Position numbers and translations under genes: made by a program. Shown piece by piece: positions 1,428 to 52,690 of a stretch of DNA of 52,690 nucleotides (position 1 is the first letter of the stretch; every line of letters begins with the position of its first letter). The notes below the pieces were generated by a model. The model was not told where the DNA came from, made no database searches, and saw only the letters and a list, made by a program, of their open reading frames with translations. Where the stretch lies: positions 1 to 52,690 of IMG/VR virus record IMGVR_UViG_3300020020_000040. One strand, written 5' to 3'. Source of the DNA: a virus. Taxonomy: Duplodnaviria; Caudoviricetes.

Positions 1428-2931
1428 TGTTATTGAGGGATTTGTCGGTAGTGTACTAGCCAATCGTTATGACAGTGCTACAGCCATTCCCAAGTTCCAT
1501 AAGGAGCTTTGGGAGTTGGCGTGTAGTGACCAGAAGTTTGTTGCCATTGCTGCCCCTCGGGGGCATGCTAAGTCAACGGCTGGGACGATTGCGTACACAC
1601 TAGCCTCTATCCTATTCCGATCATCGAACTACGTAGTCCTGGTGTCTGATACAGAATCCCAGGCAGTCATGTTCCTACTAGCTATTAAACAAGAATTACA
1701 AGAGAACAAGGATATCAAGGATCTCTTCCACCTCACTGTCGATGAAAAGGGAGTGAAGTTTGAGAAGGATACCGAATCGGTAATCACTGGTTCTTTCAAA
1801 GATGGACACAAGTTCAGGATCATTGCCAAGGGTAGTGAGTCTAGTCTTCGTGGATTGCTGTGGAATGGTCAACGACCAGACCTGATTGTGATCGACGACT
1901 TCGAGAATGATGAGCTTGTGATGAGTAAGGACAGGAGGGAGAAGCTGAAGCGGTGGTTCTATGGAGCCTTGCTGCCTTCTCTGAAACCTTCTGGTAAGGT
2001 TAGGATGTGGGGAACTATCCTCCACAACAGTTCGCTGCTTGAATCCCTGATGCCGTCCCTCACTGCTAAGAATACAGTACAAGTGGGACTGCGGATGCAC
2101 TCTGCACCAGCACCATTCTTTAGGCCGATGTTCAAGTCCCTGCGGTATCGAGCACACTCAGATGATTACAAAGAGATCCTTTGGCCTGATCGATTCGACA
2201 AAGAGTTCTACAAGACTAAGAAAGCTGAGTTCGATAAGCAGGGTTTGAGTGATGTCTATGCTCAGGAGTACCTGAACATGCCGATTGATGCCTCCAAGGC
2301 GTACTATCGGAAGAGTGATATGCAGCCAATGCAGGCAGAGGACAAGAAAACTCGCAAGAAATACTATGTCACTGCTGACCTAGCCATCTCCCAGGACGAA
2401 CGGGCGGACTATACCGTCTTTGTTGTCACTGGTATGGACGAAAACCGTACAGTTCATGTGTTGAATGTCATCCGTGAGCGTATGGATAGCCTGGAAATCA
2501 TCGAAACAATCTTCCAACTCCACAAAATCTACAATCCCGAGGCTATCGGCATCGAAAAAATGCAGGTATCCCAGGCGATTGCCCCTATTTTGCGTGAGCA
2601 AATGGTCCAACGTGGGATTTTTCCTAACATTCTTGAGCTTTCGCACATGAATAAGGACAAACCAACACGTGGTAGGTCAATGCAAGCGCGATTGAGGGCA
2701 CAAACTGTGAGGTTTGACAAGGATGCTGACTGGTGGCCTGCTCTTGAAGAGGAACTTTCCCAGTTTCCTAGAGGAAAGAACGACGACCAAGCCGATGCCT
2801 TCGCTTATGCTGGGCTTTTACTCGATAAAATGACTGAGGCCCAGACGGATCGGGAGATTCGTGAAGAAGAAGATGAAGAAGCTCTGGCTGACACAGCCTT
2901 TACCTCCAGGAATCCGATCACTGGGTACTAA
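1402..2931 (+). CDS. terL: Terminase large subunit
   Basis: Walker A APRGHAKST, Walker B LIVIDDFEND, C-terminal RNase H-like nuclease (ADLAIS, GIEK, DDQADA). Confidence 0.93.
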   Translation: MPQIQLTSDVIEGFVGSVLANRYDSATAIPKFHKELWELACSDQKFVAIAAPRGHAKSTAGTIAYTLASILFRSSNYVVLVSDTESQAVMFLLAIKQELQENKDIKDLFHLTVDEKGVKFEKDTESVITGSFKDGHKFRIIAKGSESSLRGLLWNGQRPDLIVIDDFENDELVMSKDRREKLKRWFYGALLPSLKPSGKVRMWGTILHNSSLLESLMPSLTAKNTVQVGLRMHSAPAPFFRPMFKSLRYRAHSDDYKEILWPDRFDKEFYKTKKAEFDKQGLSDVYAQEYLNMPIDASKAYYRKSDMQPMQAEDKKTRKKYYVTADLAISQDERADYTVFVVTGMDENRTVHVLNVIRERMDSLEIIETIFQLHKIYNPEAIGIEKMQVSQAIAPILREQMVQRGIFPNILELSHMNKDKPTRGRSMQARLRAQTVRFDKDADWWPALEEELSQFPRGKNDDQADAFAYAGLLLDKMTEAQTDREIREEEDEEALADTAFTSRNPITGY

Positions 2932-2956
2932 CTCAACACACAAAGAGAGATAACTT

Positions 2957-5110
2957 ATGGCCTTTCCTCCTGATATGCCTCTACCCCAAGGTGATCCCTC
3001 TCAGGGGATGGGCATGCCTCCCCAACCTCCGGCTGCTGCACCTGACATTAACCCAATGCCCAGTGATTTCTTTGCAGAGGAGCCGGATTCCTATCAATCC
3101 AACGTTTCAGCGGAGACACAATATGAAACTAATCTCAAAGCTCAAAAGTTTGCTGCAGAAGCTAAAAAGAACATTGCAGAATCTCTTTCAGAAGAGCGCC
3201 TAAACGAGATCGGGTCCAACTGCAAGCGTTCCTTCGACATCGATGTGCAAACAACGAGGCAATGGAGGAATGAGGTTGACCAGTGGATTCAGTTAGCTAT
3301 TCAAGCACGGGATCCTAAGAACTTCCCGTGGAATAACGCTAGCAATATCAAGTTTCCGCTGGTCTCCATTGCTGCCATGCAGTTTGGAGCCCGTGCCTAC
3401 CCGACACTTGTACCATCTGGTGACAAGATTGTCAAGCCCGTTGTCTTTGGTACAGATGCTGATGGCTCCAAGCTCAAACGAGCACAACGAGTCAGCAAGT
3501 ATATGTCATGGCAACTGCTGTATGAGATGGATGGTTGGGAAGAGGACATGGATTTCCTGCTCCTCCAGCTGGCTATCATGGGTACGATGTTCAAGAAAAC
3601 CTTCTACGATCCCCATTGTGAGAAGGTTAAATCGGAGTTGGTTGACCCTAGGGAACTGACTATCAATTACTTCGCTAAGAGCATGAACGAGTTCCAGACA
3701 ATCTCTGAGCACTGGTTCCTGTACAAGCGTGAGGTTATCGAACGTCAGCGATCTGGTGTCTTCCTTGAAGACGTAGAACTTGGTGATCCCACCATGTCCG
3801 CATTTGAGGGGGTGAGTTATGTCCCTGCTGACACAGAAGATGTTCCGTATTTCCTGGTCGAACAGCACTGCTGGATCGATCTAGACGATGATGATCTCCA
3901 AGAGCCCTACGTCGTTACGTTTGAGAGGTCTACCGGAAAGGTACTCTCGATCTATCCCCGATACTTCCCGGAAGATATTAAGGTCCGAAAAGGGAAGATT
4001 GTCTCTATCAAACCCTGTTCTCAATACACAAGATTTTCTTTCATTCCAAATCCGGAGTCTAAGATCTACAGCTTGGGATTCGGACATCTCCTTGGACCAA
4101 TTAACGAAAGCGTTAACACCATTGTTAACCAGCTTGTCGATGCAGGAACCCTATCCAATCTACAAAGTGGTTTTATTGGAAAGGGGCTTCGTCTTGCGAA
4201 GGGTGAACAAATACTCCAGCCTGGGCAGTGGAAGCAAGTAAATGCTGTAGGCGATGACCTTCGTAAACAGATCGTCCCGCTTCCTGCCAACGAACCATCC
4301 AATGTGTTGTTTCAACTCCTTGGGTTCCTGGTTCAGTCTGGTAAGGAACTGGCGTCTGTTGCTGAGATCTTCGTTGGTAAGATGCCTGGTCAGAATACTC
4401 CTGCCACTACTACGATGGCAAGTATCGAGCAGGGCATGAAGGTGTTCACTGCAATTTATAAACGTACCTATCGAGCTCTTTCCGAAGAGTTCGATAAACT
4501 CTACTACCTGAACAGTAAGTACATGGACTTTGAAACCATGGTGTCTGTTCTTGATGAACCTGTCAATCCCCAGGACTTCAATACGAAGGACTACAACATT
4601 CTTCCGGGTGCTGATCCGACTGCCGTCTCTAGTACGGAACGTCTGATGAAAGCCCAGGGTCTGTTGGAACTTCTGCCCCTTGGTACCATCGATCCTCTCG
4701 AAGTTACTAAGCGGGTGCTTGAAGCCCAGGAACAACCGGACTGGGAAGCGCTCATTCCGGGTATGAAACAAACTGGTCAGCCACAGATTCCACCTCCTCC
4801 TCCTGATCCGAAGATGTTGGCTATGGAAGCTAAGGCTGCTAATGATCAGCAAAAAGCACAGATGGATGCTGAGAAACAGCAACGTCAAATGGCTATGGAA
4901 GAAACCAGTAACGAAGCTCAGCTTGCGATGAAGGCTCAAGAGAACACCCTCAATCAACAGCATGCAGCAGTTATGGGCAACATCGAAGCCGAAGGTGCTC
5001 GACGCAAACAAGAAATCTTTATGGCAGAAGCAAGGCAGAAAGCTCAGCTAAGGAACGAGGAGTCCAAAGCTAAACAGCAGGCTGCTAAGTCTACTCCCAA
5101 AAAGAAATAA
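2957..5110 (+). CDS. Portal protein (podoviral, long C-terminal coiled coil)
   Basis: 717 aa directly after terL; PWNNASN, LVDAGTLSN, TATTTMASIEQG motifs; Q/E/K-rich C-terminal helix. Confidence 0.85.
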   Translation: MAFPPDMPLPQGDPSQGMGMPPQPPAAAPDINPMPSDFFAEEPDSYQSNVSAETQYETNLKAQKFAAEAKKNIAESLSEERLNEIGSNCKRSFDIDVQTTRQWRNEVDQWIQLAIQARDPKNFPWNNASNIKFPLVSIAAMQFGARAYPTLVPSGDKIVKPVVFGTDADGSKLKRAQRVSKYMSWQLLYEMDGWEEDMDFLLLQLAIMGTMFKKTFYDPHCEKVKSELVDPRELTINYFAKSMNEFQTISEHWFLYKREVIERQRSGVFLEDVELGDPTMSAFEGVSYVPADTEDVPYFLVEQHCWIDLDDDDLQEPYVVTFERSTGKVLSIYPRYFPEDIKVRKGKIVSIKPCSQYTRFSFIPNPESKIYSLGFGHLLGPINESVNTIVNQLVDAGTLSNLQSGFIGKGLRLAKGEQILQPGQWKQVNAVGDDLRKQIVPLPANEPSNVLFQLLGFLVQSGKELASVAEIFVGKMPGQNTPATTTMASIEQGMKVFTAIYKRTYRALSEEFDKLYYLNSKYMDFETMVSVLDEPVNPQDFNTKDYNILPGADPTAVSSTERLMKAQGLLELLPLGTIDPLEVTKRVLEAQEQPDWEALIPGMKQTGQPQIPPPPPDPKMLAMEAKAANDQQKAQMDAEKQQRQMAMEETSNEAQLAMKAQENTLNQQHAAVMGNIEAEGARRKQEIFMAEARQKAQLRNEESKAKQQAAKSTPKKK

Positions 5111-5125
5111 CGCCAAAGAGGCTCT

Positions 5126-5329
5126 ATGAAAATTATCCCAGAGCAACTAGCTGCATGGAAAGATGATGAGGTTACACGAGAGTTGTACCAAATCCTCAAA
5201 GAAACGCAGGCTGGTTTAACGCAACAGTTAATTGCGCAAGCAGGTACGAATCCTTCTGATGATGCTCGCATCGCCGGAATGATCCAAGCCTACGAAGATG
5301 TTATGACAGTCGATCTCAAAGGAGATTAA
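5126..5329 (+). CDS. Hypothetical protein (head module)
   Basis: 67 aa ORF with GAGG RBS between portal and GroES. Confidence 0.7.
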   Translation: MKIIPEQLAAWKDDEVTRELYQILKETQAGLTQQLIAQAGTNPSDDARIAGMIQAYEDVMTVDLKGD

Positions 5330-5334
5330 ATACC

Positions 5335-6880: not shown

Positions 6881-6906
6881 CCTGCTCCTATTAATGGAGA
6901 ATTTTT

Positions 6907-7500: not shown

Positions 7501-7512
7501 GGAGAATAAGAA

Positions 7513-8430: not shown

Positions 8431-8436
8431 TGCCCG

Positions 8437-8465: not shown

Positions 8466-8478
8466 ATAGGAGATTAAG

Positions 8479-20390: not shown

Positions 20391-20402
20391 CAGAGGAAAA
20401 TT

Positions 20403-21500: not shown

Positions 21501-21509
21501 AGGATAATC

Positions 21510-36819: not shown

Positions 36820-37927
36820 ACCTGCTTATGCAGCATAGCTGTGCTGTCTCCGATAGGTTCTGACAGTTAGGTCCATTGGAACTCAGCCTGCCTGTGTCAG
36901 TGACACACAGGTTGAAGTTCGTATAGATATACTCATGGCCATAGCCACCAACATCTTGCTTGTTAGGTAGCCCTTCTAGGTAAGTGTTGATCTCTTTCTG
37001 TAGAGCACGGATCTGTTTAAGATCAGCGATGAGTTCATCACCACCCAGCTTAGATAGAGTGTCGTCGTCAGTAGACCATCTACCTCCAGGAGTCCTGGCA
37101 ATAGGCTCATATCTTCGAGGAAACTGTACATCATACTCCTCCCACTGGAACTTAACCTGTCCTGCCTTAGCACCAGTCTTGTAGTGACCTATCGGTACCT
37201 GTCGCTTCCGCTTAATCGATCCACCAAAGAGTAAAGCAGCAAGCTGATCCGGAGAACCCCAATTGAAATCAGGTATCCCGTGCACAGCAAAATGCTTATC
37301 AAATAATCCTTGAACCTTGGTCTTTGCTTCCGCAGCGAGAGCCAGGCTTTTCGCACGATCATATCGAATCCCATTACGTTCCATTTCAAACAGAACGAGT
37401 ATGTCCTCGCATCCCAATTCGAACAGAGGCATCTGTCGTTCAGGTACGATGTCCATATCGAAGAGCTTCCTGGTAAGGACCACGTCTTGATGCAGATATT
37501 CCATCAGCTTATCAAGCGGTACCTCACTGGTCAGCTTACCCTTGTTCCAGTATTCTTCCTTCACGAAATCCAGCTTACGTTCGCTGAGATATCGGAAGGC
37601 CATGTCATCTAGGCTAGGGTAGGGATTGGTCATCCCGTTAACAAGGAAGTCTGCGTACTGCAGGTCATAGATCTTGACCCCGGAAATGTCAATGCCTATG
37701 TTGACTAGCCAGTGCATGTCGAACTTAGCATTGAACAAGACCATCAGGTCACAGGCATACACACACTCCTGAAGGATCCGTAGTTCATCAGCAGATGGGG
37801 TGACTGTGAAGATAGGACCATCACCGATCTGATAACCGACCGCAATAACAAAGTTGCGTGGGTCTGTCCACGCCCCTCTGTTATGCGACTCAGTCTCTAT
37901 GTCAAGGGTTAGGACCGTTCTGTCCAT
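36812..37927 (-). CDS. DNA polymerase family A, N-terminal (3'-5' exonuclease plus thumb) half
   Basis: ExoI LDIET, ExoII FNAKFD, ExoIII YLHQDV, NWGSPDQ, TGRLSS..PNCQN, then stop. Confidence 0.9.
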   Translation of the reverse strand: MDRTVLTLDIETESHNRGAWTDPRNFVIAVGYQIGDGPIFTVTPSADELRILQECVYACDLMVLFNAKFDMHWLVNIGIDISGVKIYDLQYADFLVNGMTNPYPSLDDMAFRYLSERKLDFVKEEYWNKGKLTSEVPLDKLMEYLHQDVVLTRKLFDMDIVPERQMPLFELGCEDILVLFEMERNGIRYDRAKSLALAAEAKTKVQGLFDKHFAVHGIPDFNWGSPDQLAALLFGGSIKRKRQVPIGHYKTGAKAGQVKFQWEEYDVQFPRRYEPIARTPGGRWSTDDDTLSKLGGDELIADLKQIRALQKEINTYLEGLPNKQDVGGYGHEYIYTNFNLCVTDTGRLSSNGPNCQNLSETAQLCCISRYE

Positions 37928-41112: not shown

Positions 41113-41807
41113 AATACCAGAAACTCCTTGATTTGTTCGTCGTTGTAATCCTTTGGATCCTTCAACGAATATATAACGTCACAACTAGGTAGGAATAGTG
41201 ACAAGGTACACGACAGGTCAATGGCATCGAGATACTTGTCAGCATCTAGCCAAATCGTGACGCTATTAAAGCCACTAACAAACTTTGTACCGACAGCAGA
41301 GAGGACAGAGCCAAACAAGCACAGACAGGGAAGATGCCGAGCGACTTTAATACCAGACACAATGTCTTCAACCAACACAAGGCTAGAACTACTGTTGCCA
41401 GCATATTCATTGAGAGTAGGAACCAGACTATCATGTGGCTTACTCCCGTAGCTGCGTGTCTTGGGCTTACGTCCATCCACTGCCCTGAATTCCATGAACC
41501 CTTTTACTGAGTAAAAATGTTTGCCAGTAACCCTGTCCATCTTGAAGTGGGTGTTAATCTCTTGGTCTGTTAGACCGTAAGACTTGAGCCACTCATAGTT
41601 CTGTGTCCCCCTGATTGGGACTTCAATGGTGTTAGGAAATACTACCTCATCATCATCTTCCAATACTTTAGGAGTGAAGATCCGCCCACTCTTATGATAT
41701 CCACAAGAGAAGCAGTGATACCCACCATCAGGATAGGTGACTAGGTTATCACCAGACCTATCCTTACCGTGGTCTCTACATCTCGGACATGGACTCTTAA
41801 CTTTCTT
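41109..41807 (-). CDS. DNA primase (Zn-binding plus TOPRIM); start codon unresolved
   Basis: In-frame CPRC..DNL.YPDG..HCFSC upstream of the annotated TTG; LVLVEDIVS, LFGS, WLDAD, KDPK. Confidence 0.85.
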   Translation of the reverse strand, partial: KKVKSPCPRCRDHGKDRSGDNLVTYPDGGYHCFSCGYHKSGRIFTPKVLEDDDEVVFPNTIEVPIRGTQNYEWLKSYGLTDQEINTHFKMDRVTGKHFYSVKGFMEFRAVDGRKPKTRSYGSKPHDSLVPTLNEYAGNSSSSLVLVEDIVSGIKVARHLPCLCLFGSVLSAVGTKFVSGFNSVTIWLDADKYLDAIDLSCTLSLFLPSCDVIYSLKDPKDYNDEQIKEFLVL

Positions 41808-42621
41808 TCACTCCTACAAAGAACCCCTGGTGTTCAGCAACGAGGCATTGGGTTGATTTTTTAATATGAACAGAAAGGTCACTGATTTCTTCAGGCTCTT
41901 CGTAATCACCATAGACTACATTCGTGTTGACTGGTTTGTTTGCAGTGAACACAGGCACACCGGACAGCCACTTCCCTGTGGTCCCGCCGATAGACAACAG
42001 TACCCCGCGACGTGGTCCCTTGGTAACAAAGAACATTGTGTTGCTGGACTTGGCATACGGAACGATCGTAAAGTCGTAATCCTTCTTCGTGATCAGACCT
42101 TGGAAATCCTCCAGACTTTTGTTCAGCTTGACGGGCTGGACAGGCTGACTTACAAGTATATCAATCTCATGAGAGGGAATACTCCAATCATAGGCCAACT
42201 CACTGAACACCTCAGTAAGAGTACGACTAGAGTCCAAGTAGTTAATAGCATCATGTAGATTAATGCCATTGGGATAGAACTGGCACAACCTGTTAGGACT
42301 CAGGAGTGAGTACATAACAGACGATTGCTTAACTACAGTTCCAAACGCATGGATGAACGAGCTAGTTCCAATGTAGTTGTTATACGCCTTGGACAACACA
42401 ACCATATTGGTTTCTTTGGATACTAGGAACGTGAATCCCGCCGACGTAGTGACCCGAACATACCTAAAGAAGTCGATATCCTCAGAGTACTCATCCTTCC
42501 ACATCTCCATCTTGGCTTTGCCGATGAGGAATGGGGAGTACGAACTGACTTTGCGATAGCCCTCATCATCACGCCAGAGATTGGACTCAGCCAGGAGTTC
42601 TGCTTTAAGCAACGGACTCAT
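41797..42621 (-). CDS. Hypothetical protein
   Basis: 274 aa ORF abutting its neighbours. Confidence 0.65.
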   Translation of the reverse strand: MSPLLKAELLAESNLWRDDEGYRKVSSYSPFLIGKAKMEMWKDEYSEDIDFFRYVRVTTSAGFTFLVSKETNMVVLSKAYNNYIGTSSFIHAFGTVVKQSSVMYSLLSPNRLCQFYPNGINLHDAINYLDSSRTLTEVFSELAYDWSIPSHEIDILVSQPVQPVKLNKSLEDFQGLITKKDYDFTIVPYAKSSNTMFFVTKGPRRGVLLSIGGTTGKWLSGVPVFTANKPVNTNVVYGDYEEPEEISDLSVHIKKSTQCLVAEHQGFFVGVKES

Positions 42622-43680
42622 TTACTTCACCACCGAATACGTAATTGGGATCGTTTGGCACTTAGCCACTTTGATTGTATCAGGAACAAAGGTGTCTGTC
42701 ATATCTTCCAATGGGTCATGTTCACAATCACCAAGAAGAACTAGTTCTCGTCTAGCATTGATTCGATCAAATATATCAATCTCCAACCACGTACCCAAAT
42801 CCCTTTTCAAGATGCCTACTGTACCACGGTGAAGACCAGCTACCACAAAGAACAATTTGTAGGTATTACTCTTAAGAGAGAACGAATTTAGTGAAGATAG
42901 GAACGTTAGGACAACAGAATGTAGCGTCGAGCCAGACACCACATCAGAGATTTTACTCGGTAAAACAAAATCAATCTTTAGCTCAGTGGTTGATTCTGGT
43001 TCTTTATAGTCAAAGGCATCAAACGAAACATCAGCCTGAGGAGCAGTGTTAAATTGACTCTGACCAATGGTAAACATTGGCTGACTACCACCATACCAAG
43101 CACTCTCAATCGTCTTGACCTCCGTCGTCTTTACTGCTGGCTTGGTGGCCGGAGAGACTATGTAGTTAAGCTGCTCCTCAAAGAATCCCTTGACATGCGT
43201 CTTTTTACCGGCACTCTGTAGTTTACCATACAGACTGTAGATCGCATCCCCGGCAGCACTACTCAATCTACGGGTACTACCATCAGAGTACACAACTACT
43301 AGATCTACCCCAGGACTGCCGATCGGTACGTGATTCTTCCTTGCACGAAGACGTGTAATATCAAGCAGGCTGTAAACCTTCAGGATACTACCTGGAACAA
43401 CCATCCCCAGTTCATGAGTCAGACTGTTAGGACCAGTTCCATAACTATCAATGGATTGTTCCGGATTGAAGATGCACGAACCGTTAGGTCTTACCAGTCT
43501 CCTGCTTCCATTGGTGAACGTGACAAGATGGTACACATACAGCTGACTATAGCTTCCGAGAATGTCGCCTAGAAGAAACGCCTGATCGTCAGAAAGGAAG
43601 ATATGCCTGTGATGTGGATGAGCACCTTGGCTCGTAGGAAAGAGACCATTGATATGTACATCAACAACAGTCGGGTCCAT
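42622..43680 (-). CDS. Hypothetical protein
   Basis: 352 aa ORF, GAGG RBS. Confidence 0.65.
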   Translation of the reverse strand: MDPTVVDVHINGLFPTSQGAHPHHRHIFLSDDQAFLLGDILGSYSQLYVYHLVTFTNGSRRLVRPNGSCIFNPEQSIDSYGTGPNSLTHELGMVVPGSILKVYSLLDITRLRARKNHVPIGSPGVDLVVVYSDGSTRRLSSAAGDAIYSLYGKLQSAGKKTHVKGFFEEQLNYIVSPATKPAVKTTEVKTIESAWYGGSQPMFTIGQSQFNTAPQADVSFDAFDYKEPESTTELKIDFVLPSKISDVVSGSTLHSVVLTFLSSLNSFSLKSNTYKLFFVVAGLHRGTVGILKRDLGTWLEIDIFDRINARRELVLLGDCEHDPLEDMTDTFVPDTIKVAKCQTIPITYSVVK

Positions 43681-44559: not shown

Positions 44560-45303
44560 TTACTTAACAATAACAGATTTAAAGGTGTTCACGAAGTAGT
44601 CAGCAGTGGAATCCACCATACCAGGCGCACTGTTGATTTCCAGTACATACGCCTTATTGTAGTGCTTATTCCACACAATGTCAATAGCACCGAAGTCCAT
44701 ATCAAACGCTTGTGCTACCTTGGCAGCAGTCTCAACAACGACAGGACTCAACTCATGGTTGACACTACCGTACACATACCCATTGTCCAGATTCTGAATT
44801 TTTGAGTGCGACTCTCCAGTTTTCTTCAGTTTCTGTTTAATCAGACTGCTGGAAGCACCTTTTACCCAGTAAACTCGATATTCACGGGCTTTCTTGATGT
44901 ACTGAGTATACAACGGAACGTTGTGCAAGTCAACAGCATTATTTGCAAGGATAATACCCTTGCCGCTGTGACTATTCAGCAATGCCCTACCGACTACCAG
45001 ATACCCTTCCGAGAGCCATTCGAGGGCGACATTCTTGTCCGTTGTCCAAGGAGGAACGCAGTCCCCGAGACCTGCCTTGGTGATTTGCTGGAAGAACTCC
45101 AATTTGTTGCCGATCGGATTGGCATTGAGGATCTTTGCCACGGGGAATTCTGGAATAGACGCACTGCCCCAATTGATAATGACATCAGTTGCCTTTGGTT
45201 TGTATTTGGAATTGGTGTGTTTAATCAGCTTCCCGCCAATCTTCGTGGCAAGCAGCTTAGCCGACTCACTTGACGGCTTATATGGATAAACAAAGATCCT
45301 CAC
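44560..45303 (-). CDS. ATP-grasp (RimK/glutathione synthetase-like) ligase
   Basis: INWG, NK, HSGKGI, YIKK.REYRV, DFGAIDI, LEINSAPG; GTG 45303 overlaps the upstream stop. Confidence 0.88.
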   Translation of the reverse strand: MRIFVYPYKPSSESAKLLATKIGGKLIKHTNSKYKPKATDVIINWGSASIPEFPVAKILNANPIGNKLEFFQQITKAGLGDCVPPWTTDKNVALEWLSEGYLVVGRALLNSHSGKGIILANNAVDLHNVPLYTQYIKKAREYRVYWVKGASSSLIKQKLKKTGESHSKIQNLDNGYVYGSVNHELSPVVVETAAKVAQAFDMDFGAIDIVWNKHYNKAYVLEINSAPGMVDSTADYFVNTFKSVIVK

Positions 45304-46613
45304 GCATCCTCCGTAACAGTACCAACAAATTCTTCCTGACATGCCTGACAGATCAGGCCATGGACTGTCTTGTTGATACCAGTCCGAATAGCCAGATACT
45401 CACCATGAAAATCTTGATGCATCATGGAATCACAAACAGCACAGTTATCCAGAACAAGGCTAACCAGTTCTGACTTCGTGACTTCCGATCCACATCCCAG
45501 ATACAACTTCTTATCCGGCTCTTTGAGATCAGTTACATCAACGGGTTCTAATTTCCAATAAGAGTTTTTCTCGATTTGGTACTCAACAAACTGCTTTCCA
45601 TCCCTCATGATGGTCTGGGGTGGTGACTGCAACATGCCCTCAAACGCATCAGTATCCCAATTCGGAATTTTCCAATCTGTAACGATTGACATGAGTTCGT
45701 GGCGATCTGTTATTCCTGAATACTTGTACCTTCCTCCCGGAAACGTCGTCTCCTCGATAAGAGAGAAAACGCAAAACATGTCGTCATTGGCTTGCCCTCC
45801 TTTCTTATTCTTCCCCCTGATCTTCGGAAGATGCTTGACCTTCCTTCCGTAAGGACCATCACTATCCTTAGTACCCTTCGTATAATGATAGTAGGTAGTG
45901 GTCTTGGGCTTTGGGTTTTTGATAACCGTTTCCCCCTCCATCAAAACAGAGGATTTGCCATCAAGAATGTAATGCGTATCTTCCTTCAACTCGTACAGCG
46001 TGTATCGCTTCGGATCGAACGTCTTGAACTGTCGAGGTAGGATCCAATCCATCATCGCAATTTCACTGGCCCAGAAGAACGTCTTGTCATACTCGACAAT
46101 AGAAAACGGGCGTTCTTTGTTGGCGAAGAAGTTCAGACTCTTTTCGTTGTCATCCCACCACACACAAGCATATGCACCATGGATGTCTGCAAACGCCTTG
46201 ACTCCCTTCGCAGCAACCTCACTGGTCAGCCAGTCACTGTCCACACTGAATTCAAGCGGGAAGTTATTGGTCAACGTGCCGTTATGGGCCATGGTAATGT
46301 GCCCACGAGTAAACGGATGGGCATTAGCACCCGTAACTCCACCCTTGGTAGCAGCACGATGATGGCCGATGATGGTGGCAGCATCCTTGTCCATGCTTGT
46401 TTTGAACGTCTGCCAGATACCACTACCAAACAGTTGCCACGGGGCACCCGCGGTCTTGATTGCCCTTAGATTAGCACCATCCTTGTCAACCGCTACGATA
46501 CCAGTGCCATCCATACCACGGACAACTCCAGCGAGCATCATGTTGTACATGACATTAAGCTCGGTAAAGGTCAGTGCCGCCGTAGGTCGATGAAGCCCAA
46601 AATGTCCACACAT
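45300..46613 (-). CDS. Class II (Ntn) glutamine amidotransferase with C-terminal Zn ribbon
   Basis: N-terminal MCG, RGMDGTG, GHHRAAT, NAHPF, HNGTL, VDSD, FWASE; CAVC...CQAC. Confidence 0.9.
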   Translation of the reverse strand: MCGHFGLHRPTAALTFTELNVMYNMMLAGVVRGMDGTGIVAVDKDGANLRAIKTAGAPWQLFGSGIWQTFKTSMDKDAATIIGHHRAATKGGVTGANAHPFTRGHITMAHNGTLTNNFPLEFSVDSDWLTSEVAAKGVKAFADIHGAYACVWWDDNEKSLNFFANKERPFSIVEYDKTFFWASEIAMMDWILPRQFKTFDPKRYTLYELKEDTHYILDGKSSVLMEGETVIKNPKPKTTTYYHYTKGTKDSDGPYGRKVKHLPKIRGKNKKGGQANDDMFCVFSLIEETTFPGGRYKYSGITDRHELMSIVTDWKIPNWDTDAFEGMLQSPPQTIMRDGKQFVEYQIEKNSYWKLEPVDVTDLKEPDKKLYLGCGSEVTKSELVSLVLDNCAVCDSMMHQDFHGEYLAIRTGINKTVHGLICQACQEEFVGTVTEDA

Positions 46614-46626
46614 TCGGTTTTATTCC

Positions 46627-47502
46627 TTAAAACAGGTCAGAAATGAAGTGCTTTGCAGCCAGAATCATCAAACGAGTTTCCGACCTTGTAAGTTCATCGG
46701 CTCCAGGAAGGGCAGTACCAAAAGCATCCGAGATAAATCCCGAATAGTTCTTGGTCATCGATACATCTTCCAGATTCCGAATGTGTTGACGCAAGGGCGT
46801 CTTTTCCGCATACGTATGCAATGCAGCAATGGCATTCATCCACGCACGGAGATCATCAATACTCTTGGTCCCAGGATGATGCCTGAATTCAAGCGTACCA
46901 TAATCCCGCAGATGGTAGAAATTCAACCCGCAGTATTTGAACTTCTTAAGCGAGTCACCACTGCAAATCGTCTTCTTGTCCAGCAAGTGGATGTTCGCTC
47001 CACTGCCAACAATAGGGAAACAATATGCATTGTTATGCCGCTTCCCTTCACCGACGAAGTTAAAATACAACTTCTCCGATGCGATATAGGCCGAGATCAG
47101 GACGATCAATTGCTCGATCGACAGATCATTGACACCCATATGCACATGGATACTGCACCGATGAGAAAAGACAGAGTTGGCGTTGACAGTAAAGATATAC
47201 TCCAATTCTTCGAACGCTTTCCCAAACTGCGTTCCACGAATCGGCCTGCTGATATACTCCATCCCTGAATCTTTCAGCGATCCATCACCCTCAGCATTCC
47301 ACAAAGGCATTTGGACATCACTCACCTGACACTTTTCCAATTCCACTTCCACACCGAAGCTGGTCGTAGAATCAACACCTGCGGGTGCTCCGGCGGGCGG
47401 AAATAGTTTGTTGTGTGAGATGAAGTCCGTGACGATTGGGGCCTCACTCAGCCCGTAGTACCCTAGAACCGTGTGATCGAGATATTGCAAGACGCCAGAC
47501 AT
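46627..47502 (-). CDS. Amidoligase (glutamine synthetase-fold COOH-NH2 ligase)
   Basis: FGVEVELE, GDGSL, MEYIS, CSIHVH, GTLEFR. Confidence 0.85.
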   Translation of the reverse strand: MSGVLQYLDHTVLGYYGLSEAPIVTDFISHNKLFPPAGAPAGVDSTTSFGVEVELEKCQVSDVQMPLWNAEGDGSLKDSGMEYISRPIRGTQFGKAFEELEYIFTVNANSVFSHRCSIHVHMGVNDLSIEQLIVLISAYIASEKLYFNFVGEGKRHNNAYCFPIVGSGANIHLLDKKTICSGDSLKKFKYCGLNFYHLRDYGTLEFRHHPGTKSIDDLRAWMNAIAALHTYAEKTPLRQHIRNLEDVSMTKNYSGFISDAFGTALPGADELTRSETRLMILAAKHFISDLF

Positions 47503-48107
47503 TCGGCAACCTCATGGACGTAATTGGGAAGAACCGTTACCTTGGTCATGGACTTGTTGAACAGCCCAATCACAGAATCAAGAAAGTACAGACGGCCACG
47601 CCAAAAACACATCTCCGGAGAGATCGGGCCGAATGATCCCAAAGCCTTGTCAGTATCATAGACAAGGGAATCAGGAGAGATAAGCTCCCCATCCTCTACA
47701 AACTTCGGGACCACTTTCTGAGCATCCGAAACCTTGATTTGCGGATTCCAGATTTTATACGTCGAATGGCTGACCCCTTGCTGATAAGACTTTATCATTC
47801 GCTTGATGGTAAGTACAGCCTGAATCTGGTCATCCTGAAACTTGAACTTTTCATGAGTCAGGAGAGGCCAGTATACGGGCGGCAGTTGGATATAGACAGG
47901 ATGAAGATCGTCATAGGAAACGACGTCACCATCAATCCATCCATTAGGCCCCTGACCAGTAACCCTCATCGAATCCTCACCAACCTTGGTGATATAGAGT
48001 TGATAGTGTTTCCCGGTCTTTGTATCAACGCACGGAACCCAGGATTGATGGAACCGGAGTTGATATGCCTCCGAGTTCCATTCCTTCTGATATAGTAGTT
48101 TCTTCAT
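47463..48107 (-). CDS. Hypothetical protein within the amidoligase cluster
   Basis: ATGA overlap with the ligase gene. Confidence 0.6.
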   Translation of the reverse strand: MKKLLYQKEWNSEAYQLRFHQSWVPCVDTKTGKHYQLYITKVGEDSMRVTGQGPNGWIDGDVVSYDDLHPVYIQLPPVYWPLLTHEKFKFQDDQIQAVLTIKRMIKSYQQGVSHSTYKIWNPQIKVSDAQKVVPKFVEDGELISPDSLVYDTDKALGSFGPISPEMCFWRGRLYFLDSVIGLFNKSMTKVTVLPNYVHEVAECLASCNISITRF

Positions 48108-48922
48108 ACTTTCTCAAGAACAGCCGAATACACAGAGTCATACTGATTCGTCATGTTGTCACGAATCAAAGTCAGAATATCGATATTCTCGATAGTTGCC
48201 ATGGCACCAGTCGGCATGGCTTCGAAGAAACTGGCGGTTTGTTCCAGAATCTCGTCATAGGCACTGAGATTGTCCACGACATCGGTGACAACGCCATAGA
48301 CTTCCCGCATCAGTTGCTCGCTGGTCAGCCAGATGTTGCTTGGCACACGATACTCGACGCCATAAGGCTTCAAGCGACATGCACCAGCATTCCCATACAA
48401 CTCATTCCGACGGTCAGTCGGGTTGAGCATGGCCAAGGGAACACCAAGCATCAGATCCAGCACCCGAACCAGCTGCATCTTCTTCGCCAGATTCATCTGT
48501 ACGCCGATGTGGATATGACCACCAGCAGTGCGAAGATTGGTAGATGTGGCCGACGGGGCAGGATTCGGTTCCAACAGCCAAGCATTGAAGTCAGGATTGC
48601 AGCCAAACGTCTGCGCACCTTCCGTCTTCAACTCGCTGTCCGGGAACTCCAGAGCACTGACAATCCCAACATGCAGACCGTTCGGATTGGCGATCTTGTT
48701 GCGAACAAAATCCAACGCCTTGGTGTGGTTCGCAATCCACGCCTCGACATTGCTAGCCGGTGGGATGTTGAACTCCACCGTCACATTATCTTCGAGGTAG
48801 GCATAGTTGCCCTGCTTCAAGGGATTTTCTTTCGTCCCACCCACCAGTCCGACAGCCGATACAGGCTGGTCTGACGAATTGAGTAGGAACACTTCAGGGT
48901 CCGAACCAAGCAGAATCTTCAT
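48104..48922 (-). CDS. phiEco32-like COOH.NH2 ligase type 2
   Basis: GSDPEVF, EDNVTVEFN, FGCNPD, LRTAGGHIHIG, YGVEYR. Confidence 0.9.
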   Translation of the reverse strand: MKILLGSDPEVFLLNSSDQPVSAVGLVGGTKENPLKQGNYAYLEDNVTVEFNIPPASNVEAWIANHTKALDFVRNKIANPNGLHVGIVSALEFPDSELKTEGAQTFGCNPDFNAWLLEPNPAPSATSTNLRTAGGHIHIGVQMNLAKKMQLVRVLDLMLGVPLAMLNPTDRRNELYGNAGACRLKPYGVEYRVPSNIWLTSEQLMREVYGVVTDVVDNLSAYDEILEQTASFFEAMPTGAMATIENIDILTLIRDNMTNQYDSVYSAVLEKV

Positions 48923-48945
48923 ACTGTTTTATCCAGTAAAACGGT

Positions 48946-49581
48946 TTAGAGAATGAAACGATCGACGAGACTTTTGGTCAACTGACCCATGGGTGACGCC
49001 GGATTGCCGTACTCAGGATGATATTGCATCATCAGAGCACGAACGCGATCCTGCTCAAGAAAAGCAACTTCGACTTCAGGACGCTTGGTCTTTTCCTCGC
49101 CTTCAGCCGTCACATAGATATTGCTCAACGGCTCTTTCGATACCGCAATCACTTCCATCTTGTCCGATGGTTTCATCATTTGATGATGCGACGATGAAAC
49201 GCTGACAACGGAACCCTCTGCATATTCTTTGCAGATGTCCCGTGTCAGTACGATCGGATGATTGCCGTGACCATGCCCAGAGATATGCTGATACAGCGTA
49301 CCTCCAAGCATTGCACACAACAATTGCGCACCACGACAGACTCCAATCATGGGAATCTTCTTCGTGATGCATTCTTCGATCAGGGCACATTCGAAAATGT
49401 CCCTTGCTCGGTCTTGCTCTTGGCAAGCGACATTCTCATGTCCGTAGATTCCCGGATTGATGTCACTACCGCCCCAGAATACCAGGGCTTCGGGCTTGGT
49501 GTCCCTCAAATCCCTGATAGACCGGATGGTGGCCGAGTTCAGACCGAAATACTTGATTTGATAGAGTACCGATCCAATCAC
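48946..49581 (-). CDS. Class I glutamine amidotransferase / peptidase C26-like
   Basis: GGSDINP..YG, GVCRGAQ, SSHHQ, QYHPE catalytic triad. Confidence 0.9.
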   Translation of the reverse strand: MIGSVLYQIKYFGLNSATIRSIRDLRDTKPEALVFWGGSDINPGIYGHENVACQEQDRARDIFECALIEECITKKIPMIGVCRGAQLLCAMLGGTLYQHISGHGHGNHPIVLTRDICKEYAEGSVVSVSSSHHQMMKPSDKMEVIAVSKEPLSNIYVTAEGEEKTKRPEVEVAFLEQDRVRALMMQYHPEYGNPASPMGQLTKSLVDRFIL

Positions 49582-49790
49582 GAGATGTCCTTCGGCGTGT
49601 GAAACAGTTGCTTGATGTGGCCTTTGACGGTTTGGAACTCGTCACCAGTCATGAAGCGACCGATCTTGTAGGCCACATACTTCGGGCCATGCTCGAATCG
49701 CGTGTGGTTGTCGTATCCATCACCAACGAACACATCAACCGTTTTCCGATCGACCGTGCAGAAGTGGAACTCACCGATTTGATATTTCAT
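49578..49790 (-). CDS. Early hypothetical protein
   Basis: AAGG RBS; DVFVGDGYDNHTRF. Confidence 0.65.
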   Translation of the reverse strand: MKYQIGEFHFCTVDRKTVDVFVGDGYDNHTRFEHGPKYVAYKIGRFMTGDEFQTVKGHIKQLFHTPKDIS

Positions 49791-49799
49791 TGTTTAACC

Positions 49800-49952
49800 T
49801 TAGCAGGTAGGAGTATCACCAGCGGGTGCTGACGATGGGGCGGGAGTGGGCGCTGCCGGAAGTTCATCCTCTTGTTGCTTGGTCAAGAGCATGTAGAACT
49901 TCCTGCCCGTGGACTTGTCTACAACTTCCACGAATTTGGGGCTATCTGACAC
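49800..49952 (-). CDS. Small early protein (50 aa, below the ORF-track cutoff)
   Basis: AGGA RBS, GTG start, MSDSPKFVEVVDKSTGRKFYMLL...PAAPTPAP. Confidence 0.5.
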   Translation of the reverse strand: MSDSPKFVEVVDKSTGRKFYMLLTKQQEDELPAAPTPAPSSAPAGDTPTC

Positions 49953-50034
49953 GTTTTATCCTGTAAAATCCTCTAACACGCTTCATCGGGTGATAAAGCA
50001 CTATTGGAGCCTATGTTTCAAAGCCCCAATAATA

Positions 50035-50277
50035 CTACACTAGATGAATATTCGACTGCTCACCAGCCTTGAAGATGATGGAGCCATACGGCTTGCCAGC
50101 ATCTGCACGCGGAGGCAATTTGCCATGCGTACTCTTGGTCTTGAGCACATGGAAGATAACACCAGGACTGGCAGTTGTCAAGTCCTTTGCATAGGCATTT
50201 GCTGCAGCCTCTGCACTGACATCACCATCTGTCCAGACTTTCCGGACCGTGCCGGTCTCTTCAATTACTGCGAACAT
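50035..50277 (-). CDS. Early hypothetical protein
   Basis: AGGA RBS, 80 aa. Confidence 0.6.
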   Translation of the reverse strand: MFAVIEETGTVRKVWTDGDVSAEAAANAYAKDLTTASPGVIFHVLKTKSTHGKLPPRADAGKPYGSIIFKAGEQSNIHLV

Positions 50278-50429
50278 TGCTATTCATCCTGTCACAAATT
50301 TCTCGGGCCACATCCTGACATCTATTGTAGCAGCAACAGCGATTGCCGTTCTGGTCTACCAGATGCCACAGAACGTGTGGATCATATGCCACTTTGTATT
50401 GTAGCGATTGAAAATACAACGCACCAACA

Positions 50430-50705
50430 TCAGGAATCACTAGATTTCCCCAATTTAGCTGCTACTTCCTGCAGGTATTCTATTCGTGCTTGTGCTCTAA
50501 GAGATCGTAGATGGTCAAGCATTCTCTGCATCACATCCACACCATCCATGGTTTGTGTGTCCGGATCGTTGGCGATACCAATGCAGATATCGATCGCCCG
50601 TTCTAGCACCAAATCTCTGTCGGAGACTGGCCGACCCACTGCCAAAGCTTCAATTTCTTGGATCCACATCTGATTCGGCGCATCCATCGGTGTTGCTGGT
50701 CTCAT
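50430..50705 (-). CDS. Early hypothetical protein
   Basis: ATGA overlap with the upstream mini-gene. Confidence 0.55.
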   Translation of the reverse strand: MRPATPMDAPNQMWIQEIEALAVGRPVSDRDLVLERAIDICIGIANDPDTQTMDGVDVMQRMLDHLRSLRAQARIEYLQEVAAKLGKSSDS

Positions 50706-50830
50706 TTCATACATTCCTCAGCATGTTCTTCACCATCATCATACCCATCATAGTAGCCAGCCGACTGCCTGGGGTCCGTAGAAGTGCACGCACACAACAA
50801 CAGGTGGATAACTACTATGATGGTTCTCAT
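50702..50830 (-). CDS. Putative 42-aa lipoprotein
   Basis: GGAG RBS; MRTIIVVIHLLLCAC lipobox-like start followed by an acidic tail. Confidence 0.45.
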   Translation of the reverse strand: MRTIIVVIHLLLCACTSTDPRQSAGYYDGYDDGEEHAEECMK

Positions 50831-50923
50831 TCTGTACTCCGTTTTATCGGATAAAATACGCGGAGATGAGGACTGCAACAGACATCAACACGCTCACACG
50901 AAACACACAACGCTGTAGTACAG

Positions 50924-51055
50924 TCACCAGATTTCCACGTTTTTGTATCCTTGGGCGAGGAGCCTGGCTTTTGCTTCGGCTTTGTCCCACGCACGGACGG
51001 AGGTGTTGAACGTAACATTTTCTTGTGTGGTCACTGTTGCGGCGAAATCAGACAT
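50924..51055 (-). CDS. Small early protein (43 aa)
   Basis: GGAG RBS; MSDFAATVTTQENVTFNTSVRAWDKAEAKARLLAQGYKNVEIW. Confidence 0.5.
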   Translation of the reverse strand: MSDFAATVTTQENVTFNTSVRAWDKAEAKARLLAQGYKNVEIW

Positions 51056-51254
51056 CATCGTACTCCGTCAGAATCACGGCCGACTCAGGCTGCTCTTGAG
51101 CGTTCAGTGTCCAGATCAGAAACGAATCAACCAGCAAGCAGCCCAGCACGACAGCAGTGCCGGCACTCATCACGATCGACACTGCTCCGAGCATTGCCAT
51201 GATTGCGCCACATGCAACGCCAATCTCACGCGCGGGGTTTGTTTCAGTGAACAT
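51048..51254 (-). CDS. Small membrane protein (2 TM)
   Basis: AAGGA RBS; hydrophobic hairpin. Confidence 0.55.
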   Translation of the reverse strand: MFTETNPAREIGVACGAIMAMLGAVSIVMSAGTAVVLGCLLVDSFLIWTLNAQEQPESAVILTEYDDV

Positions 51255-51278
51255 GATATTTAAATCCTTGGGGTTGTT

Positions 51279-51449
51279 TTATCGAGTAAAACGGTCCGGC
51301 TCGCACCGATACACAGACTCGGCAATACGGAACTGGCCATTGCCATCACAACCAGCAATAACATGCTTCGCAACAGTGAAAACACCGGCGACGAACATAG
51401 TTCCGCCGACAATCACTGCAACAATGAACATAACAGCCGAGGTATTCAT
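51279..51449 (-). CDS. Small membrane protein (1 TM, two Cys)
   Basis: MNTSAVMFIVAVIVGGTMF...GC..GQF....YRC. Confidence 0.55.
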   Translation of the reverse strand: MNTSAVMFIVAVIVGGTMFVAGVFTVAKHVIAGCDGNGQFRIAESVYRCEPDRFTR

Positions 51450-51478
51450 TTTATCCAATAAAACTGTTTGAGAAACTT

Positions 51479-51534
51479 GCCAGACCCGGCATTGCACCGG
51501 GTTTCGACTGCGCGTTGGCAGTCTCGTCAGTGGC
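51479..51534 (-). ncRNA. Hammerhead ribozyme, type I
   Basis: Minus strand GCCA CUGACGA GACUGC-CAACGC-GCAGUC GAAA CCCGGU-GCAAU-GCCGGG UC^UGGC; complete core; GUC cleavage between 51483 and 51482. Confidence 0.9.
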
Positions 51535-51536
51535 TG

Positions 51537-52091
51537 TTAGGCTGCAGCAGTGGCAGGCTTGTCAATCTGCGCGGTAAGCGCTGCGATCAACTCGATAACA
51601 TAGTCCGGGCCCTTGGTCGCCAACAGATGCGCCGCATGTTTCTCGACAGTTTCGAGTGCAGCAGTAACATCAGTCAGATCAACAGCCACAGCAGCAGCTG
51701 TTACCTCGTCCTCGGCCGATTTCTGGGCTTTCGGCTCGACAGCTTCACCCTTCCAATTCACGGACAGGGATTTCAGGTACTTCGCAGCGTCCGAATAGAT
51801 CCCGGCACAGTTCCGACCCTCGACAGGCACGAAACCCTGGACCATCGCACCGAAGATCGCTTTCGCACGGCTGCTGTAGTTGTAGGCAGTCCCGAGAGCC
51901 GGCGAATCCTTGCGGACCTTGCTGAGCGTAGCTTGCGCTTCACCGAGAATCGCTTGCTTGCTCTCGACTGGCAGATCAGCAGCGATCAGTTCAGAAACCA
52001 TCCCTACCATCTGCTCGGCGACTGAGTCTTGTTCGGCCATCGACTTGTACAGTGCAACCAGCGCAGTGCTGTCATTGAAATTCATGCTCAC
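51537..52091 (-). CDS. Ala-rich helical early protein flanked by two ribozymes
   Basis: AAGGA RBS, GTG start, 184 aa. Confidence 0.75.
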   Translation of the reverse strand: MSMNFNDSTALVALYKSMAEQDSVAEQMVGMVSELIAADLPVESKQAILGEAQATLSKVRKDSPALGTAYNYSSRAKAIFGAMVQGFVPVEGRNCAGIYSDAAKYLKSLSVNWKGEAVEPKAQKSAEDEVTAAAVAVDLTDVTAALETVEKHAAHLLATKGPDYVIELIAALTAQIDKPATAAA

Positions 52092-52243
52092 TTTACGTTC
52101 CTTTCAGTTTTACCGGATAAAACCGGCGGAGTTTGTGTGGTACGATGCAAGACGCATCTTTCCCACGAGCCCTATCTTACCATGCCCATGTTGCTGCAAT
52201 GTGTCAAACAGGTAAGACTTTGTAACTAGAGTAACAGTTTGTA

Positions 52244-52300
52244 ACAGTGGTCTCATCGGCGTGGACACTATCCACGGACCCTCTCGCGAGGGTTTCGACC
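52244..52300 (-). ncRNA. Hammerhead ribozyme, type II (U4C core variant, pseudoknot)
   Basis: Minus strand GGUC GAAA CCCUC-GCGA-GAGGG UC^CGUGGA-UAGUG-UCCACG CCGAUGA GACC ACUG; loop I UAGU can pair with the 3' ACUG; cleavage between 52277 and 52276. Confidence 0.82.
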
Positions 52301-52302
52301 TC

Positions 52303-52542
52303 TTACTGCATAAAACTCAGACCAAACCTACGTTCAAGGTAGTCATGATAGGCTTGGACACCCGCATTGAAAGCCTGCAATTCTGCTTCGGGAATGTCCA
52401 GACCACGCATGATCGCTTGCCTCCGGCACTCGCTGTCGCGTTCGTTGATCTTGGCAATCTCTGACTTGATCGCGGGGCTGATGTCTTGGATGCGCACTTT
52501 GTACTCCTTGGACGGTTCCTGGGGGAGATCAGATAATCTCAT
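52303..52542 (-). CDS. First early gene, hypothetical protein
   Basis: 79 aa ORF ending 2 nt before the type II hammerhead. Confidence 0.55.
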   Translation of the reverse strand: MRLSDLPQEPSKEYKVRIQDISPAIKSEIAKINERDSECRRQAIMRGLDIPEAELQAFNAGVQAYHDYLERRFGLSFMQ

Positions 52543-52690
52543 AAATCGGGGGCAGAATCCAATGATATTACACTATGGACACTGCAAGGAGGATAGTATT
52601 GTAAGTTTTACTGGATAAAATAGGGGGCTAGAGCATGGGGCTATATACAAATGGGGGCTGTGTTAGTGTGTACTAACTTGTTGATAGCCC

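Follow-up and report, generated by a model that had tools for sequence, protein, structure and literature searches.

The 52,690-bp stretch of IMG/VR virus record IMGVR_UViG_3300020020_000040 (Duplodnaviria; Caudoviricetes), which we call the window, carries 13 exact copies of a 15-bp palindrome, TTTTA-N5-TAAAA, most of them at junctions between genes near its early end. The window is a complete virus record (CheckV 100%) with no end repeats, and its genes lie in two convergent arms, one on the plus strand (~593-28144) and one on the minus strand (52542 down to 28206). The palindrome is real, symmetric, under selection and placed at gene junctions. We propose, tentatively and with somewhat less than even confidence, that a phage-encoded dimer binds it as a predicted double-stranded DNA (dsDNA) site and blocks or gates RNA polymerase at the junctions, which would shut off or time the early operon.

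A palindrome with near-invariant arms

The repeat had been noticed in an earlier reading of the sequence alone (the original prediction). Our search returned exactly 13 copies, with the coordinates and spacers listed there, and the same three one-mismatch copies (24897, 44860 and 52301). In 100 dinucleotide shuffles of the window, the mean was 0.01 copies and the maximum was 1. Markov simulations of order 1, 3, 4 and 5 (200 each) gave means of 0.025, 0, 0.01 and 0.01, respectively, again with a maximum of 1. The motif is therefore strongly over expectation against both kinds of background, and the chance expectation of 0.05 copies given originally was of the right order of magnitude but slightly high (0-0.025 by shuffles and Markov models).

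The arrangement of the two arms is restricted as well. When spacings from N0 to N20 were scanned, only N5 was present, with its 13 copies. Everted and direct arrangements of the two pentamers do not occur in the window, nor does the motif pattern read backwards. The pentamers themselves are rare in this genome (TTTTA, n=32; TAAAA, n=24), and 13 of each fall within the motif. Chance or base composition as the origin of the motif is rejected by the shuffles, the Markov models and the backwards-pattern count. At one mismatch or fewer the total rises to 16, against 0.93 expected; only three copies are added by this relaxation, and the arms are therefore close to invariant.

The symmetry is not limited to the arms. 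The whole 15-mer is two-fold symmetric and can be written TTTTAYY-S-RRTAAAA (Y, pyrimidine; S, C or G; R, purine). Numbered inwards from its outer end, a half-site has a pyrimidine at position 6 in 25 of 26 cases and at position 7 in 24, and all 13 sites have a G:C pair at the centre. The spacer rules proposed originally hold in this form: all 13 spacers start with YY and have a central C or G, and 11 end in RR, the exceptions being 46618 and 49954. A G precedes the half-site in 13 of 26 cases, and the site is probably a 17-mer, gTTTTAYY-S-RRTAAAAc. Read on the mRNA strand, spacers occur in both directions (e.g. CTGGA at 48927, TCCAG at 52606), and the site has no orientation.

Copies are concentrated at early gene junctions

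Placement was tested on a gene map that leaves 4.8% of the genome non-coding and assigns 5.8% to junction zones. The centres of eight of the 13 sites are in junction zones (binomial P 1.2e-7), namely those at 46618, 48927, 49954, 50842, 51277, 51449, 52108 and 52606. The minus-strand arm holds 12 of the 13 copies (P 7.6e-4), and eight are located in the last 6.1 kb (P 2.4e-5), at 70, 568, 1227, 1399, 1834, 2722, 3749 and 6058 bp from the right end, with the others further away. Several statements of the original prediction about this gradient are borne out: seven copies occupy the last 3.8 kb (48927-52620), no exact copy lies between 2831 and 34139, and five copies are in coding sequence (2816, 34140, 36630, 41502 and 42951).

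The junction copies are also tied to start codons, which are found 0-22 nt downstream in seven of the eight, in line with the earlier description of the copies in the last 3.8 kb as lying mostly at gene boundaries and ribosome-binding sites. A likely Shine-Dalgarno GGA is within the spacer at 46618, 48927, 49954 and 51449, and the stop codon of the upstream gene is in an arm at 46618, at 51277 and at the one-mismatch copy 52301.

From the five intragenic copies, the distance to the next start codon downstream ranges from ~35 to ~390 nt and exceeds 120 nt for four of them. These copies are in the terminase gene, the exonuclease gene, a 79-aa open reading frame (ORF), a 352-aa ORF and a primase-like ORF. 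At these positions, relatives encode similar residues in homologous proteins while the motif is absent from their genes, as is the case for the terminase homologues at the 2816 copy. Since homologous genes encode similar residues without the motif, the DNA sequence itself appears to be selected.

Relatives keep the site or carry a different palindrome

Comparison with relatives, a check proposed along with the original prediction, gave two kinds of result: two metagenomic contigs keep the sites, and the nearest cultured relative has another palindrome with the same distribution. The contigs were found through a 184-aa early protein of the window, which has metagenomic homologues at 61-69% identity. 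Both contigs, L031 and L032, are short and encode members of this family (66% and 60% identical, respectively). No further loci encoding the family were found, with none in viral contigs, none in the phage collection and only these two short contigs in the metagenome scan.

The site is kept at the same junctions in both contigs. L031 has two exact copies, one located 11 nt before the gene for the 184-aa homologue and the other spanning a stop/start junction whose flanks have no BLAST-detectable homology to the window. L032 has two one-mismatch copies, at both corresponding places. Stop codons in the TAAAA arm are also found at L031:797 and L032:246.

The L031 junction whose flanks lack detectable homology could alternatively mean that the sites are recombination linkers, that is, short shared sequences at cassette boundaries that serve the shuffling of early genes between related phages. 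The promoter-early stem-loop (PeSL) elements of T4-type phages have reportedly been proposed as linkers of this type, and early gene content does differ among the window, L031 and L032. We consider this explanation quite improbable. The fixed sequence is only 10 bp, five copies are inside conserved replication and packaging genes, and neither the strict palindromy nor the strict spacing would be needed. In addition, the comparable repeats of Cluster O mycobacteriophages are, according to the text of the report on them, few or absent at the boundaries of insertions and deletions (PMC4351075).

The nearest cultured relative is the syntenic Alcaligenes phage vB_Af_QDWS535 (L021, OK172329.1), whose terminase is 47.5% identical; a literature search found no published paper on it. 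QDWS535 has no copy of TTTTA-N5-TAAAA. Its own palindrome is another one, TCCTAAYRTTAGGA, of which 10 copies are exact, 5 have one mismatch and 4 have two. For the core of this palindrome, CCTAA-N2-TTAGG, 11 occurrences compare with an expectation of 0.03. The 10 exact copies all fall within 25208-48105, in the minus arm or the control region and towards the early end, and seven of them occupy junctions or intergenic positions. At four sites, the AGGA that precedes the start codon by 6-9 nt comes from the right arm, TTAGGA, to which the left arm is complementary. We note that the two DNA polymerase A genes of QDWS535 overlap by stop and start codon in a TAATG, and that this TAATG is part of a one-mismatch copy at 28227.

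Among 16 terminase-anchored IMG/VR loci from more distant relatives, 15 lack the motif and one (L013) has a single copy. Apparent repeats in distant relatives were discarded as a tandem pentapeptide-repeat array (L027), a heptamer tandem (L028) and incoherent 8-mers. The array in L027 (3372-3790) is long, has a 15-nt unit (GGGGCCAACCTGTAC/GCGC-like) and looks like pentapeptide-repeat coding sequence.

A double-stranded DNA site is favoured over an RNA hairpin

The 15-mer has an RNA folding energy of only 0 to -0.4 kcal/mol, and the hairpin is part of the minimum-energy fold of the ±25-nt context at three of the 13 sites. Variant copies are not compensated in the opposite arm (0/5 in the window and L032, 0/9 for the QDWS535 motif). 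The symmetry extends through the would-be loop, where a hairpin would not call for it. In QDWS535 the site, a palindrome of 14 bp, has no room for a loop and cannot pair fully as a hairpin. An autonomous RNA hairpin is thus not supported by the folding energies and context folds. The original prediction had favoured a dimeric protein that binds dsDNA over an RNA hairpin, and we come to the same preference because the hairpin is unstable, the variants are uncompensated, the symmetry is central, some copies are intragenic (one on the other arm) and the QDWS535 counterpart is loop-less. Scanning the window against Rfam gave no match at gathering score and four unrelated sub-threshold matches at E up to 5, none of them on exact copies; one of the sub-threshold matches, isrG at 51353-51439, is near motif copies.

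In the mechanism that we propose, a two-fold symmetric dimer would read the dsDNA site with one TTTTAYY half-site per subunit. The binder would be made early by the phage and would then occupy the sites at gene junctions, where the bound dimer may block or gate RNA polymerase after initiation. The early operon would be shut off or timed in this way, as by stoperators but regardless of orientation. We infer that a protein binds the site, that the binder is encoded by the phage and that the effect is on elongation or early shut-off. A phage-encoded binder is the most likely one, given that in QDWS535, the closest cultured relative, another palindrome occupies the corresponding places. Action after initiation is suggested because the sites are inside transcription units, on the ribosome-binding regions of nearly every immediate-early gene, and not at promoters. 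No sigma-70-like promoter prediction in the window overlaps a motif copy. The functions suggested in the original prediction, operators for early shut-off or loading sites for the first-injected DNA, are plausible; of these, classical operators are unlikely, since the sites are not at recognisable promoters, and control of elongation, or of expression after the promoter, fits better.

Several observations weigh against this mechanism. The arms, with 13 exact copies and three one-mismatch copies, are unusually strict for a transcription-factor site. At four junctions with long gaps (82-211 nt), the site is still 0-17 nt from the start codon (P ~1e-3, as a rough estimate). An RNA-level element would predict such a tie to start codons, which a DNA roadblock could do without. 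In more distant relatives (L001-L016, L022-L029 and MW202796), scans for dyads and k-mers detected no palindrome of this kind. No DNA-binding regulator was recognised in the Pfam and PHROG scans, which covered the window ORFs apart from four on the plus strand (18397-22646). The 184-aa protein, our candidate for the binder, is acidic (pI 4.8) and has no recognised DNA-binding fold. Its structural model likewise has no fold match: Foldseek against PDB and BFVD returned E 0.39 or worse, and VIA-align gave generic helical matches with Z ≤6.9.

An operator acting at the RNA level is kept as the main rival because the start-codon tie argues against a DNA site, although we regard it as unlikely. UUUUA-N5-UAAAA would form a 5-bp stem and a 5-nt loop held by a protein, and this start-associated element would control the translation, processing or stability of early cistrons, to be compared with phage coat-protein or boxB-type hairpins or with the start-associated sequences of Cluster K phages. 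Consistent with this, seven of the eight junction copies keep their short distance to the start codon, including those in the long gaps; likely Shine-Dalgarno sequences are in the spacer at four sites and upstream stop codons in the TAAAA arm; AGGA is provided by the right arm of the QDWS535 palindrome; and transcription from the early end runs through the arm that holds 12 of the 13 copies. On the other hand, the hairpin is unstable and is found in few context folds, the loop on the mRNA strand reads both ways (CTGGA, TCCAG), and the symmetry continues into the would-be loop without compensation in either phage. Five exact copies are intragenic and mostly far from the next start, and the 14-nt palindrome of QDWS535 cannot pair fully.

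A further alternative concerns the identity and role of the binder. A host protein (a nucleoid-associated protein or global regulator) or a virion protein might bind the sites and organise, protect or draw in the genome end that would enter first. The steep climb of site density towards one genome end would fit such a role, as would the AT-rich arms with TpA steps, the failure to recognise a phage-encoded DNA-binding regulator, and the other motifs of related phages, which presumably have other hosts. DNA organisation or entry leaves the bias to junctions and start codons unexplained, and we know of no host factor with a TTTTA-N5-TAAAA site. We judge this alternative improbable.

The sites are very improbable as promoter elements, whether for host sigma-70 or for a phage-directed polymerase, even though they are AT-rich, their TAAAAY arm resembles a -10 hexamer and they stand ahead of many early genes. 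The motif has no polarity, and no RNA polymerase gene was recognised. Transcripts starting at 46618, 48927, 49954 and 51449 would lack a ribosome-binding site, since the start codon is 0-4 nt after the site. The sigma-70 form of this idea is rejected on these start codons and on the lack of any predicted promoter on a copy.

The 184-aa early protein is a weak candidate for the binder

Our preferred reading, a phage-encoded dimer on dsDNA, calls for a binder among the early proteins. The only match of a DNA-binding type in the scans was the small-terminase-like ORF (813-1427); no repressor, integrase or ParB-type family turned up among the scanned ORFs. In the window, L031 and L032 alike, sites flank the gene for the 184-aa protein on both sides. 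The protein, which the original prediction had named for binding tests, is the only early protein found to be conserved together with the motif. Its AF2 model (pLDDT, a per-residue confidence score, 83.9) is all-alpha, and a PDB sequence profile search returned nothing meaningful. We treat it as a weak candidate.

By tblastn, the early ORFs have no detectable homologue in QDWS535 or MW202796. With more sensitive comparisons, the 184-aa family may include gp60 of QDWS535; among the large early genes of that phage gp60 comes first, and it likewise has sites on both sides. BLASTP between the two gave E 2.4, and hhalign gave E 0.04 with 6 sequences and E 9.4e-4 at a probability of 22% with 13 sequences. 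An hmmsearch with the 184-aa profile placed gp60 at the top of 4629 ORFs (E 0.0094; high bias), and a distant-only profile ranked it third (E 2.8). These scores are suggestive of a relationship and do not show one. The first early gene (gene 1, 64 aa) was considered as a ribbon-helix-helix protein and is unsupported in this role: its homologues are only itself, it has no Atlas match and no fold match, and its single-sequence model consists of two long helices.

The surroundings of the 184-aa gene contain further elements. A non-coding block at 52123-52252 (minus strand), located between a hammerhead-like element and the 52108 site, is conserved in L032 (577-694) and L031 (1-36). It contains TGTTAC repeats, TTGACA, an extended -10-like TGnTAAGAT (52179-52174) and the conserved TCGTGGGA, and the 184-aa gene probably has its promoter and 5' leader here. 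The 52108 copy is ~45-60 bp downstream of TGnTAAGAT and TCGTGGGA and would therefore be inside the transcript.

The hammerhead type II-like element itself (52253-52297, minus strand) follows the first early gene and its one-mismatch copy. It scores 18.2 bits (E 0.74; gathering score 37) and has the core CCGAUGA, not CUGAUGA. L032 has two such copies, at 265-324 and 532-576, with higher scores (28.0 and 27.6 bits; E 0.006-0.008) that still fall short of gathering; the first directly follows a motif-like site. A GC-rich hairpin is found after the stop codon of the 184-aa gene, just upstream of the 51449 copy.

Comparison with repeats of other phages

The repeat is of a type already seen, and unexplained, in other phages, and the present case differs from those in lineage, sequence, geometry and its tie to start codons. 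The closest known parallel is the 17-bp dyad repeat TGTTCGG-N3-CCGAACA of the Cluster O mycobacteriophages (Corndog and relatives), whose authors predict that a dimeric DNA-binding protein recognises it and has a role outside initiation (PMC4351075). As the text of that report describes them, these repeats share with ours invariant inverted arms, a short variable spacer, no meaningful orientation and few variants (34 exact and 3 variant copies in Corndog, 13 exact and 3 here). They are likewise denser towards the right end in a leftwards operon, with many copies intergenic, about one third inside genes and most not at promoters, and the phages are not obviously temperate. The differences, on the same source, are an unrelated lineage and sequence, with a Gram-negative host for the cultured relative of our phage; 5-bp arms with a 5-bp symmetric spacer here, against 7+3+7 there; about one third as many copies here; and the tie of our junction copies to start codons, which the authors say theirs do not have. 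A literature search, with supplementary files outside its reach, found no follow-up work on the Corndog repeats.

Taken at its fullest, our proposal is that a lytic lineage runs its immediate-early programme through a genome-wide switch, in which TTTTAYYSRRTAAAA is read by a fast-evolving early protein of undescribed fold (the 184-aa family, perhaps with gp60), and in which site and binder have changed together relative to TCCTAAYRTTAGGA of QDWS535. The phage-specific palindrome would cover the ribosome-binding region of almost every early gene, with a few copies in later genes. This fuller version is doubtful. If it is true, the same switch logic would probably explain the Cluster O dyad repeats. 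The present case adds a second, unrelated lineage with the Cluster O type of anatomy, evidence that the sequence can be swapped wholesale between relatives while its placement is kept, and a cultured model, QDWS535 on Alcaligenes faecalis. If the sites gate early transcription or translation, they would be a compact and portable regulatory part. The sites also point out the immediate-early genes in a phage group that otherwise lacks annotation.

The stoperators of L5 and other Cluster A phages are asymmetric 13-mers in one orientation, bound in temperate phages by a monomeric immunity repressor (PMC9283540). According to the text of that source, there too a single short site recurs genome-wide in narrow intergenic gaps, and a phage protein binds it and stops transcription elongation, the mechanism proposed here. 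Our site differs in being palindromic, and no repressor or integrase accompanies it among the scanned ORFs.

Cluster K phages have a 13-bp asymmetric start-associated sequence (SAS) in one orientation, together with an extended element (ESAS), an imperfect 17-bp inverted repeat with a variable spacer (PMC3203893). As described in that article, these motifs are repeated directly upstream of the start codons of some genes, are kept at the same genes in relatives and differ in consensus between subclusters, much as in our case. The present site differs in its intragenic copies (5/13), its lack of a single orientation and its fixed spacing. Coliphage T1 and Citrobacter phage Stevie, both lytic, have 22-bp repeats in 16-20 copies, mostly intergenic like ours, which the authors compare with stoperators (PMC4319613). 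From the account given there, those repeats are asymmetric and oriented with transcription, unlike the site in the window.

A general literature search on palindromic early-gene motifs returned nothing specific. Outside phages, the OB operators of IncP plasmids offer a comparison: about a dozen scattered copies of a 13-bp palindrome with TTTA/TAAA-type arms are bound by the dimer of KorB, a ParB-family protein, which acts at a distance on many operons, and OB is not tied to start codons. That system requires a ParB-family protein, and none was recognised among the scanned window ORFs.

Coordinates and neighbouring features

The copies of the motif and the 184-aa gene are listed in Table 1.

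Table 1 Motif copies and the 184-aa gene in the window, ordered from the right end.
Feature	Position	Strand	Location and neighbours
Exact copy, TTTTACTGGATAAAA	52606-52620		Outermost, 70 bp from right end; 15/15 bases non-coding; first minus-strand gene starts 63 nt (ATG 52542) or 108 nt (GTG 52497) downstream
One-mismatch copy, TCTTACTGCATAAAA	52301-52315		Contains TAA stop of first early gene; hammerhead-like element directly after
Exact copy	52108-52122		16 nt upstream of GTG 52091 (184-aa gene); kept in L031 (exact) and L032 (one mismatch)
184-aa early gene	51537-52091	minus	All-alpha protein, no recognised fold; bracketed by sites
Exact copy	51449-51463		Abuts/overlaps ATG 51449, or 17 nt before ATG 51431; small membrane-protein gene
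Exact copy	51277-51291		TAA stop of membrane-protein gene in right arm; next ATG (51254) 22 nt downstream; exact copy at equivalent junction in L031
Exact copy	50842-50856		11 nt upstream of ATG 50830; GGAG ribosome-binding sequence between
Exact copy	49954-49968		1 nt upstream of GTG 49952; mRNA-strand spacer CAGGA, likely Shine-Dalgarno inside site
Exact copy	48927-48941		4 nt upstream of ATG 48922, COOH-NH2 ligase gene; GGA in spacer
Exact copy	46618-46632		Contains amidoligase TAA stop and AAGGA ribosome-binding sequence of next gene (ATG 46613, 4 nt off)
One-mismatch copy, TTTTACCCAGTAAAC	44860-44874		Inside ATP-grasp gene
Exact copy	42951-42965		Inside 352-aa ORF; ~330 nt from next start codon
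Exact copy	41502-41516		Inside primase-like ORF, encodes HFYSVK; MW202796 homology spans site
Exact copy	36630-36644		3' part of 79-aa ORF between two DNA polymerase A genes; ~35-40 nt before next candidate start
Exact copy	34140-34154		Inside exonuclease gene
One-mismatch copy, ATTTACTAAATAAAA	24897-24911		Inside 1826-aa plus-strand gene; may be chance match
Exact copy	2816-2830		Inside plus-strand large terminase gene, codons LLLDKM

The plus arm includes the small-terminase-like ORF, the large terminase gene (1402-2931), portal, GroES and capsid genes, a tail spike or fibre gene, a holin gene and an orphan 1826-aa ORF (22664-28144), which ends this structural arm and has no Pfam or PHROG match. 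In the minus arm, small orphan early genes are followed by a cluster with GATase, COOH-NH2 ligase, amidoligase and ATP-grasp genes, and then by the primase-like ORF, ThyX, DnaB, a split DNA polymerase A, exonuclease, ribonucleotide reductase and MazG. No tRNA genes were found in the window. The ligase/ATP-grasp cluster (44560-49581, minus strand) encodes Peptidase_C26/GATase, phiEco32-like COOH-NH2 ligase, amidoligase_2, glutamine amidotransferase class II and RimK-like ATP-grasp proteins; it is common to QDWS535 and contains the junction copies 46618 and 48927.

DNA polymerase A is encoded on the minus strand in two parts, 36812-37927 and 35660-36421, separated by ~390 nt with two small ORFs and the 36630 copy, whereas the two halves abut in QDWS535. 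The primase-like frame is open upstream of its first ATG/GTG/TTG (41663), over 41664-41798 on the minus strand. This segment encodes a CxxC...CxxC zinc ribbon, and a canonical start is absent after the upstream stop; translation may begin at a non-canonical codon, a frameshift may join the frame to ORF 41797-42621, or the assembly may be wrong here.

At the left end, a perfect sigma-70 promoter, TTGACA-17-TATAAT, is present at 183-211 (plus strand) and faces ~380 nt (220-590) without a convincing ORF before the packaging genes. This region, which had no Rfam match, could give rise to a leader or a non-coding RNA, with control of late genes as at lambda PR'. AGCCCCCAT is exact at both record ends (60-68 and 52651-52659, minus strand), with looser GGGGCT-type copies near. 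As a genome-wide repeat AGCCCCCAT was discarded, since it is not enriched (12 matches at one mismatch or fewer, against 10.5 expected). In QDWS535, the control region contains TGTCCCCAT-like repeats, and AT-rich (TA)n blocks are located at ~31.86 and ~48.5 kb.

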